A stretch of 64,000 nt of DNA from a phage. Positions 59,364-63,215 of this stretch are shown here, one piece after another. The notes under the pieces are model-generated. The model had not been told where the DNA came from and ran no database searches. It was given only the letters and a program-made list of their open reading frames with translations. The stretch lies in the sequence record PZ445436.1. One strand, 5' to 3'. The position numbers were made by a program, and so were the translations under genes. Within the stretch, counting starts at the first letter, position 1; every line of letters starts with the position of its first letter.

Positions 59364-62300
59364 ATGGCTACTTTAAAACAAATACAATTTAAAAGAAGCA
59401 AAACTGCAGGTCAACGTCCTGCTGCTTCAGTATTAGCCGAAGGTGAATTGGCTATAAACTTAAAAGATAGAACAATTTTTACTAAAGATGATTCAGGAAA
59501 TATCATCGATTTAAGCATTTCTGCTGGTGGTAATATCAGTGGTAATATTACTCAAACTGGAGATTATTTACAGAACGGTACATACAATCTCAATGGAAAT
59601 CAGTTTGTTTATGCAGGAAAATATATTGAATTTTTACCTAAAACAGCTGGTAATGGTGCGTGGGCAAATCAACACCTAAATAAAGCTCCTATCTTTACAG
59701 ATTTAAGTTCAACTACTTCTATTTCAGAATATCATCCACTCATTAAGCAACGCTATAAAGATGGAACTTTTTCAGCGGGTACATTGGTTGCTGAAGGCAG
59801 TTTTAAAATTCATTTTATGAATGAATCTGGTGATTCGAAATATTGGACGTTTCGCCGTGACGGTGGATTTACTGTTGACAATGGAGGTTTAGCAGTATCA
59901 GGTGGTAGTATAACCACAACCGGAAACATCGCCGCGATCGGAAATATTACTTCGCCCCAGATTAATACTAAAAATATTATTTTAGATACAAAGGCATTCG
60001 GACAGTATGATTCACAGTCATTAGTTCAATATGTTTATCCTGGAACAGGTGAAGAAAATGGTATAAACTATCTTCGTAAAGTTCGAGCTAAATCAGGCGG
60101 AACTATTTACCATGAAATCGCTTCAGCTCAAACTGGTAAGAATGATGAAATTTCTTGGTGGACCGGAAATACACTTACTACTAAATTAATGGGTCTTCGT
60201 AATGATGGCGCAATGGTATTACGTCGTTCACTTGCTATTGGCACAATTACCACTGATGAAAATACTAACAACTACGGTTCTCCTACTCCAATGGGAGAAA
60301 GATATATTGCTTTGGGCGATGCTGCAACCGGTTTAAAATACATTAAGCAGGGTGTTTATGATTTAGTAGGTAATTGGAATTCTGTTGCTTCTATTACTCC
60401 TGACAGTTTCCGTAGTACTCGTAAAGCGTTATTTGGTCGTTCAGAAGACCAAGGTGGAACATGGATTATGCCTGGAACGAACGCTGCCTTTTTATCAGTC
60501 CAAACACAGGCTGATGAAAACACTGCTGGAGACGGTCAAACCCATATTGGATATAACTCTGGCGGTAAAATGAACCACTATTTCCGTGGTAAAGGAAAAA
60601 CTAATATTAATACTCAAGAAGGCATGGAAGTTAACCCGGGTATTTTGAAATTGGTAACTGGCTCTAATAATGTAATGTTTTATGCTGATGGCGGTATTAC
60701 ATCTGTTAAGCAGCTTTCAATATATAACGGCATATATTTAGCAGCTAATAATTCTACTGCTGGGCTAACATTCGCTCCAACTACTACAATTGATGGCACT
60801 AAGCAAATTTTGTGGGAAGGCGGTACTCGTGCTGGTCAGAATAAAAGCTATGTAACTGTTAAAGCATGGGGTAATTCATTTAACGCATCTGGCGATCGTA
60901 ATCGTGAAACGGTTTTTGAAGTAGCTGATGGACAAGGATATTATTTTTATTCACAGCGTGTGGCTCCAAGTGGCTCTGAAACTACTGGGCCTGTTGTAAC
61001 CCAGTTCAATGGACAAGTTAATGCTAGAGGAAGTATTATTACTGACGGAAGTTTTAAAGTTAATGGATTAAGCACTTTAGTCGGTAATGTTACTATGTCT
61101 AATGGTTTGTTTGTCCAAGGTGGTTCTTCTATTACTGGACAGGTAAAAATTGGTGGAACGGCTGATGCATTAAGAATTTGGAATGCTGAATACGGTGCTA
61201 TTTTCCGCCGTTCAGAAGCGTCATTACATATTATCCCTACTCCTAAAGATGCCGGTGAAAGCGGTGGAATAAGTAATCTCCGCCCACTTAGTATTAGCCT
61301 TAATAATGGTATGGTGCAAATGCGTCATTCCGTTACATTAGGTGATGATGGTGCAGGCGGTAATATGGTGACGGTTGATAATGATTCTAAAGTTATGGTA
61401 ATGACGACTAATAGCCGTATTAGTCCTAACTTCCGTATGCAAATTGGACAGTCGTCTTATATTGATGTGGAATGTACTGATGCTGTGAGACCTACTGGAG
61501 CCGGTTCTTTTGCTTCACAGAATAACGAAAACGTTCGCGCTCCGTTCTATATGAATATTGATAGAACAGATACAAGCACTTATGTTCCTATTGTGAAACA
61601 AAGATACGTTCAAAATAATAGTTGCTATTCTATTGGTACTTTAATTAATGGTGGTAACTTTAGAGTTCATTATCATGAAGGCGGTGACGGCGTTTCTACT
61701 GGTGCTATTATAAAGGATCTTGGATGGGAATTTAATAAAAACGGTGATTTTTATTCTCCTGGTAAATTAGGCGCTGGAAATATTAGAATAGGTACTGATG
61801 GTAATATTACTGGCGGAACTGGTAACTTTGCTAACTTGAACACAACTATCGAATCATTAAAAACCGATATTGTTTCAAGTTATCCTATTGGAGCTCCTAT
61901 TCCATGGCCTACAGATACTCCTCCTAATGGTTACGCTATTATGGAAGGACAGACTTTTGATAAGTCTGCATACCCAAAATTGGCTATAGCTTACCCATCT
62001 GGAGTAATTCCTGATATGCGCGGGCAAACTATCAAAGGTAAACCAAGCGGTCGTGCTGTGTTAAGTGCAGAAGCTGATGGTGTTAAGGCTCATAACCATA
62101 GTGCTTCAGCATCTAATACTGATTTAGGTACTAAAACTACATCAAGCTTTGATTATGGCACTAAGACGACAAGTAGCTTTGACTATGGCACTAAGACTAG
62201 CAATACCACAGGTAACCACTCTCATACTGTAAGCGGTACTACGAGTTCTGCTGGTGCACACCAACATGCGCGCTCAGGTCCTCAGATACAAGCCGGCATA

Positions 62301-62636
62301 CCCAATAACATATTCTATGACGGATATAATAGTGTAGGTGCAAACGCCAACGCTAAATTCACTGGAACCGTGAACGGTGCTACTGCATGGTCGAATATAG
62401 CCAAAACTTCTTCAGACGGTGCTCATACTCATACTTGGTCTGGTACTACAAGCACTACAGGTAACCATGCTCACACAGTAGGTATTGGTGCTCATACCCA
62501 TACTGTAGGTATCGGTGCTCATACCCACACGGTAGCAATTGGCTCGCATGGTCATACTATCACTGTAAATAGTACAGGTAATACAGAAAACACGGTTAAA
62601 AACATTGCTTTTAACTATATCGTTCGTTTAGCATAA
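59364..62636 (+). CDS. 37: Long tail fibre distal subunit (receptor-binding), T4 gp37-like
   Basis: 1090-aa ORF; C-terminal His-x-His repeats and terminal [11 protein letters not shown]. Confidence 0.9.
62127..62213 (+). repeat. In-frame 30-nt tandem repeat in gp37 tip ([10 protein letters not shown] x2 plus partial)
   Basis: GGTACTAAAACTACATCAAGCTTTGATTAT / GGCACTAAGACGACAAGTAGCTTTGACTAT / GGCACTAAGACT... Confidence 0.8.
62478..62558 (+). repeat. In-frame 27-nt tandem repeat in gp37 (VGIGAHTHT x2, VAIGSHGHT)
   Basis: Three consecutive 27-nt units each encoding a His-x-His motif. Confidence 0.8.
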
Positions 62637-62663
62637 GGAGAGGGGCTTCGGCCCCTTCTAAAT
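62636..62663 (+). promoter_or_regulatory. Gene 38 translation initiation region with hairpin-bridged SD
   Basis: AGGAG, then hairpin AGGGGC-UUCG-GCCCCU (62641-62656), then ATG 62664. Confidence 0.65.
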
Positions 62664-63215
62664 ATGAAAATATATCATTATTATTTTGACACTAAAGAAT
62701 TTTACAAAGAAGAAAATTACAAACCGGTTAAAGGCCTCGGTCTTCCTGCTCATTCAACAATTAAAAAACCTTTAGAACCTAAAGAAGGATATGCAGTTGT
62801 ATTTGATGAACGTACTCAGGATTGGATTTATGAAGAAGACCATCGCGGAAAACGAGCATGGACTTTTAATAAAGAAGAAATTTTCATAAGTGACATTGGA
62901 AGCCCGGTTGGTATAACTTTTGATGAGCCCGGCGAATTTGATATATGGACTGATGACGGTTGGAAAGAAGACGAAACATATAAGCGAGTTTTAATTCGTA
63001 ATAGAAAAATTGAAGAATTATATAAAGAGTTCCAAGTTTTAAATAATATGATTGAAGCTTCTGTCGCCAATAAAAAGGAAAAATTTTATTATAAAAACCT
63101 TAAGCGGTTCTTTGCTCTTTTAGAAAAGCATGAGCATTTAGGCGGTGAATTCCCTTCATGGCCTGAAAAAGAACGGAAACCTTGGTATAAGCGTTTATTC
63201 AAGCATTACGTATAA
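62664..63215 (+). CDS. 38: Tail fibre assembly chaperone, T4-type gp38
   Basis: 183-aa ORF; SD separated from ATG by a GGGGC/GCCCC hairpin. Confidence 0.85.
   Translation: MKIYHYYFDTKEFYKEENYKPVKGLGLPAHSTIKKPLEPKEGYAVVFDERTQDWIYEEDHRGKRAWTFNKEEIFISDIGSPVGITFDEPGEFDIWTDDGWKEDETYKRVLIRNRKIEELYKEFQVLNNMIEASVANKKEKFYYKNLKRFFALLEKHEHLGGEFPSWPEKERKPWYKRLFKHYV

Follow-up and report, generated by a model that had tools for sequence, protein, structure and literature searches.

The stretch analysed here, a window of 64,000 nucleotides from phage sequence record PZ445436.1, belongs to a Tequatrovirus (T4-like) genome and contains gene 37, gene 38 and the holin gene t in that order; all features described below lie on the + strand. 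Gene 37 (59364–62636) is an open reading frame of 1090 aa encoding the distal subunit of the long tail fibre with its C-terminal adhesin. It has full-length matches at 83–92% nucleotide identity among Tequatrovirus gp37 records, and the 20 kb upstream of it are 95–96% identical to phages such as R5505, RB18 and QOTSP. Gene 38 (62664–63215) encodes a protein of 183 aa that shares 99% identity with T4 gp38 and has the same sequence as TuIb gp38 (100%). Because no Pfam family matched gp38 at E ≤ 0.01, we assigned it as a tail-fibre assembly chaperone from these two identities, and the view formed from the sequence alone that it is the T4-type chaperone and not the T2-type adhesin is upheld. A distal fibre of the T2/T6 type, in which a C-terminal chaperone is cleaved from gp37 and a gp38 adhesin of ~260 aa caps the fibre, was ruled out by the T4-like, 183-aa gp38.

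The C-terminal region of gp37 contains a collar domain (aa 843–890, 61890–62033) that scored 43.6 with Pfam PF07484 Collar (cut-off 24, E = 2.8e-11) and aligns with D10 in PDB 2XGF. Eight HxH motifs are present in the last 290 aa, three before and five after a 52-aa segment free of them, so the further HxH motifs mentioned in the sequence-only reading are there. The first, H910-N-H912 (62091–62099), is where the descending needle arm begins, and both of its histidines are invariant in a four-way gp37 alignment including T4, SH_GT and teqhad. It is followed by two 10-residue units, which we call FDY units 1 (aa 922–931, 62127–62156) and 2 (aa 932–941, 62157–62186), and by a partial third unit (aa 942–951, 62187–62216) whose first 11 nt are the same as those of FDY unit 2 and which leads into HxH motif 2. 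The distal descending module (62217–62267) comprises HxH motifs 2 and 3, from H952-S-H954 to H966-Q-H968, and is homologous to the T4 segment from H915/H917 to H929/H931. Between HxH motifs 3 and 4 lies the head, or tip subdomain, a 52-aa segment of the TuIb type (62268–62423) in which codon 1009 is TGG (Trp; 62388–62390). The distal ascending module (62424–62474), with HxH motifs 4 and 5 from H1021-T-H1023 to H1035-A-H1037, precedes three 9-residue His units that carry HxH motifs 6, 7 and 8, namely VGIGAHTHT (His unit 1, aa 1039–1047, 62478–62504), VGIGAHTHT again (His unit 2, aa 1048–1056, 62505–62531) and VAIGSHGHT (His unit 3, aa 1057–1065, 62532–62558). The gene ends with a conserved 25-residue return into the collar and the stop codon (62559–62636); the protein sequence of this return is identical in T4, SH_GT and teqhad, and the final ~70 nt of gene 37 have 100% DNA identity to T4.

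Tandem Repeats Finder reported a repeat of period 30 at 62130–62199 (2.3 copies, score 98) and another of period 27 at 62472–62535 (2.4 copies, score 100). In frame, these are the two FDY units plus the partial third (62127–62216) and the array of three His units, 27 residues in all (62478–62558), with the first two units making up 18 residues. The coordinates and translations originally given for a 30-nt unit present twice with a partial third and a 27-nt unit present three times (62127–62558) proved exact. Perfect tandem repeats of 10 and of 9 residues are far beyond chance, and both are also kept in homologues.

Alignment with T4 (NC_000866) confirmed that gp37 is the longer protein here, at 1090 aa versus 1026 aa. 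The last 278 residues were aligned to the T4 tip structure, PDB 2XGF (T4 gp37 785–1026), by phmmer with E = 2.4e-94 over chain residues 2–242 of 2xgf_A, and the sole gaps in the tip were +10 after the FDY unit, +15 and +3 in the head, and +9 at VGIGAHTHT; the four-way gp37 alignment placed the tip gaps identically. The tip thus holds 37 of the 64 extra residues (10 in the FDY unit, 18 in the head and 9 in the His unit), while the other 27 are found in a divergent N-terminal block at aa ~60–200 and an 11-aa insertion near aa 655. Repeat number is not the same in the two phages: T4 has a single full FDY unit and a single VGIGAHTHT unit, one fewer of each than here. FDY unit 1 and His unit 3 each have a T4 counterpart (the single T4 FDY unit and the T4 VAIGSHGHT unit) from which they differ at 2 nt, whereas FDY unit 2 and one of His units 1 and 2 are extra. 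T4 gp37 also has 7 HxH motifs versus 8, and a head of 34 aa between the flanking HxH motifs, versus 52 aa, that is unrelated in sequence. Shared by both are a near-identical collar, an identical C-terminus, the same gp38 chaperone and, as seen in the T4 tip structure (PDB 2XGF; Bartual et al. 2010), the same organisation of collar, needle and head with HxH motifs on both arms.

At the DNA level, identity to T4 is 72–84% in the collar and first HxH motif, 36–53% across 62118–62478 (36–43% in the head, 62268–62423) and 83–100% over the His units and on to the stop codon. Given this drop across 62118–62478, the repeats border the exchanged cassette, which agrees with published mutagenesis that maps the T4 specificity residues to the tip subdomain, and with the T4 specificity region, the divergent segment between the repeats, at residues 907–996 or 932–965 as cited in PMC9659904.

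Searches with the 741-nt tip (61900–62640) found 106 phage records that match over at least 80% of its length, 86 of them at 90% identity or more. Shigella phage vb_GEC_SH_GT matched at 99.7% identity, and some twenty further genomes, including teqhad, Ozark, R5505, AdolfPortmann, FelixPlatter and FriedrichZschokke, were ~96% identical. The gene 37/38 record of phage TuIb (X55191; Montag, Hashemolhosseini & Henning 1990) aligned ungapped at 95.5% identity; compared over the tip, TuIb has the same two FDY units plus partial, the same three His units and the same type of head, with 8 aa differences that include G1009W in the head. Unit-by-unit comparison of the DNA found two-and-a-bit FDY units and three His units in TuIb, teqhad and SH_GT alike, and the teqhad record already annotates the His array as a repeat_region. 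The head cassette itself (62187–62477) is present in 54 phage records, 18 of which, including FelixPlatter, match it at 99.7% identity with a single mismatch, and T4's own cassette is present in 45, many of them T4 stocks. FelixPlatter (Bas40), AdolfPortmann, teqhad, Ozark and R5505 carry a head cassette 99.7% identical to the one here, with Gly at residue 1009, and Gly is likewise found there in vb_GEC_SH_GT, whose gp37 is ~100% identical from ~aa 500 to the end; the N-terminal rod segments of SH_GT and of the FelixPlatter relatives are mosaic and differ among themselves. More distantly, the lambda Stf-like side tail fibres of enterobacterial prophages have a homologous collar, needle and head, many with two FDY and three His units (P0009–P0012 have the same unit counts as gp37 here). 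They differ in their N-terminal shafts and heads, and are served by a different family of assembly chaperone (PMC9659904). Judged by these matches, the tip of gp37 is a TuIb-type allele, long known and common, and neither new nor unstable. The initial impression that the repeats are an unusual or variable feature was not borne out, as the allele occurs ungapped in dozens of phage genomes and its unit counts recur in prophage fibres.

For the meaning of the extra units, the T4 structure provides a frame. Its stem arms run down over residues 882–931 and back over 960–1009, with the tip subdomain (932–959) between them (PMC6957217), and each of its seven HxH motifs coordinates iron on the trimer axis (PMC6957217, PMC12609058), in support of the premise that HxH motifs bind iron in the needle. 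From the inter-chain contacts G921–F970 and H929–G964 (PMC6957217), the arms are in antiparallel register, with the numbers of paired residues adding up to ~1891–1893. By this register, the T4 FDY unit (895–904) faces residues 987–998, within the two T4 His units (984–1001). With FDY opposite His units in T4, the extra 10-aa descending unit and the extra 9-aa ascending unit of gp37 would occupy the same axial zone, a placement that we infer from T4 numbering and from the co-variation of arm lengths described below. Converted numbering gives stem arms of ~60 and 59 aa here, compared with 50 and 50 in T4. An AlphaFold2 monomer model of aa 801–1090, built from a 55-sequence alignment, reached a pLDDT of 54 and a pTM of 0.22 and was set aside as of no use for an intertwined trimer. 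[quoted passage not shown] These proteins are distant in sequence, the collar of a related short tail fibre alone being detectable at that level (9cuy, E = 5e-7).

We surveyed arm lengths, taken on each arm as the span between its first and last HxH motifs, across 266 homologues, 120 from a word-indexed search and 146 from an exhaustive search of 50% representatives. Measurement of 245 homologues, lambda-Stf-like prophage fibres included, yielded 173 distinct tips, whose (descending, ascending) lengths group into the classes (32,18), (42,27), (46,32), which is that of T4, (52,36), (55–56,41), which is that of gp37 here and of many of the prophage fibres, (70,55), (73,54) and (76,59); class (56,41) comprises 28 distinct tips. 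The two arms rise together, with a Pearson r of 0.997 over 173 distinct tips that are not phylogenetically independent, the signal being carried by about eight length classes; across the eight classes, Spearman rho is 0.98 (p = 3e-5, slope 0.92). The difference between arms is 14–15 aa in 163 of the 173 tips. One 10-aa FDY unit is therefore matched by one 9-aa His unit, and the survey shows that the arms are kept in balance. Twenty-three sequences excluded by the filter were inspected by hand; most proved to be intact tips without a match to the collar-anchor pattern, the others being truncated or frameshifted, and no unbalanced arms were seen among the full-length tips. One of the 23, P0220, is without the distal descending HxH motifs. 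The number of layers varies over the family, with two proximal and two distal in P0062 and four proximal and one distal in P0175, and the total of HxH motifs per tip ranges from 5 to 10. The survey sharpens the known idea linking di-histidine number to needle length and is not a new discovery. The suggestion that repeat number could alter needle length gains from this strict co-variation of the two arms; its other half, that repeat number could alter adsorption specificity, finds no support, as the same needle class is found with different heads.

We thus consider it very probable that gene 37 carries a TuIb-type allele in which the two tandem repeats are paired halves of one extra needle layer. 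The tip would consist of a trimeric collar, needle and head. Every chain would descend along the needle, fold into the head and return, so that the needle has six strands bundled by metal ions, with each ion coordinated octahedrally by an HxH motif from all three chains. A proximal layer would pair a 10-aa FDY unit of the descending arm, which has no histidine, with a 9-aa V-x-I-G-x-H-x-H-T unit of the ascending arm, and the latter would supply the layer's one metal site; a distal layer would be a 14-aa segment from HxH to HxH on each arm. On this count T4 has one proximal and one distal layer, and gp37 here two proximal layers and one distal. The eighth HxH motif would bind metal, and the needle would be longer than that of T4 by roughly one layer. 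Recombination in the conserved sequence on either side probably brought in the layer number together with the whole FDY–head–His cassette.

The TuIb-type head is the most likely seat of specificity and the part predicted to bind OmpC. The dependence of FelixPlatter on OmpC was demonstrated by knock-out and complementation (PMC8594841), and TuIb is listed with OmpC as its receptor (PMC9659904); by extrapolation from these two phages, to a head that differs at G1009W, OmpC is likely the receptor here as well. The tryptophan is unique to this sequence, every other record with a TuIb-type head having GGG (Gly) at the codon, and it is the only locally unusual item. A broader proposal would make the needle an adjustable spacer of matched layers (10/9 aa and 14/14 aa), tuned to the depth of the receptor under LPS or O-antigen and changing only by cassette exchange or by paired unequal crossovers that preserve arm balance, with G1009W as a host-range adaptation of a TuIb-type fibre. 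We consider this doubtful as a whole, and the role of the needle as a 'ruler' and the effect of G1009W are speculation.

In our view it is distinctly unlikely that repeat copy number itself sets adsorption specificity or host range, as in laboratory duplication mutants of T4 gene 37. Such duplications reportedly bring Yersinia into the host range (Tetart et al. 1996, as cited in PMC7002106 and PMC3157838). A longer needle could also alter the reach through LPS. Those mutants reportedly carry a tandem duplication of a segment bounded by His boxes that includes the receptor-recognising region. A host-range duplication of that kind was ruled out here: there is a single head segment, and the duplicated units are stem layers that flank it. 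Within the survey, needles of class (56,41) bear heads with a gap of 33–58 aa and unrelated sequences (e.g. P0005 and P0006), and repeat number is therefore a poor candidate for specificity. Arm length is weakly correlated with head size (r = 0.31), OmpC is used by T4 with 7 HxH motifs as well as by FelixPlatter and TuIb with 8, and the specificity residues of T4 are in the tip subdomain.

The repeats are short, in frame, in tandem and in a receptor-binding gene, as would be expected of a contingency locus prone to slippage or recombination, at which copy number and with it the properties of the fibre switch at high frequency. Their divergence argues for a different history. Seven of 30 nt, spread over five codons and including one TCA/AGT serine switch, separate FDY units 1 and 2; for His units 1 and 2 the figure is 3 of 27 nt. 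Every change is synonymous, and the longest exact runs between copies are 8 and 14 nt. Copy number is constant, with 40 of 40 alignments of the 741-nt tip among the matches listed ungapped and full length; the phages concerned were sequenced between 1990 and 2024. The hairpin would also lose its balance if one arm alone changed, and no such allele was seen in the survey. From the synonymous-only divergence and the fixed copy number in close relatives, the duplication of FDY and His units is evidently old, with both copies under purifying selection, and the architecture appears to be a selected one and not a slippage switch. Each single unit of T4 resembles a chimera that begins like copy 1 (5′ part) and ends like copy 2 (3′ part) of the units here, which is compatible with a past unequal crossover; the T4 lineage may have lost a layer in this way, a reading that depends on about four informative sites and is given little weight. 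A hypervariable tandem-repeat locus was thus ruled out by the unvarying copy number among close relatives in the matches listed, and high-frequency switching is very improbable. An assembly or sequencing artefact, with the repeat collapsed or expanded, has a negligible chance of explaining the extra units, given that TuIb and dozens of genomes sequenced independently share the repeat structure, and that the reading frame is intact to the conserved C-terminus.

The extra units of gp37 belong to an allele already on record, in a structure that has been studied well, and they resolve no open question. Their value is mainly for annotation and engineering: the tip of the fibre can be annotated as a TuIb/FelixPlatter-type, probably OmpC-binding adhesin with an eight-layer needle. 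By the arm-balance rule, lengthening or shortening needles or grafting heads onto them requires that FDY and His units be changed together. The same rule explains why conserved repeats mark the borders of the swapped specificity cassette.

Judged by its sequence relationships, gp37 (59364-62636), the distal subunit of the long tail fibre, is a recombinational mosaic. Shigella phage vb_GEC_SH_GT shares approximately 100% nucleotide identity with the window's gene over about residues 500 to 1090, yet both it and T4 show merely 32-40% identity at residues 60-200, where teqhad and KAW1E185 instead resemble the window; teqhad is also 99-100% identical to it at residues 412-560.

Comparing T4 (L002, 8543-11623) with the repeats of the window, we found that the single 10-residue FDY unit of T4 has synonymous variants matching copy 1 in its 5′ part and copy 2 in its 3′ part (62127-62186), and that its single VGIGAHTHT unit, from the array of 9-residue His units, combines the two window copies in the same way (62478-62531). 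Deletion of one copy by unequal crossover would give this pattern and may be its origin, although informative sites are too few for certainty. The His-unit array already bears a repeat_region label from the depositors of teqhad (L004, 3574-3636), teqdroes and teqskov.

In the spacer that separates the stop codon of gp37 from the start codon of gp38, the chaperone gene, we noted a GGGGC-UUCG-GCCCC tetraloop hairpin (62642-62655; -15.6 kcal/mol, z=-2.75), which is also kept in the TuIb phage record and, minus one C, in T4. Stable C(UUCG)G hairpins have been described in T4 intergenic regions, and this one resembles them.

Within the predicted receptor-binding head, codon 1009 (62388-62390, + strand) is TGG (Trp) in the window versus GGG (Gly) in SH_GT, teqhad and TuIb. 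Over the surrounding 60 nt, none of 48 matching phage records was identical throughout, with the best matches listed differing by a single base. The head of the OmpC-dependent phage FelixPlatter is the same as the window's apart from this residue. The Trp could be a base-calling error, or else a host-range substitution.
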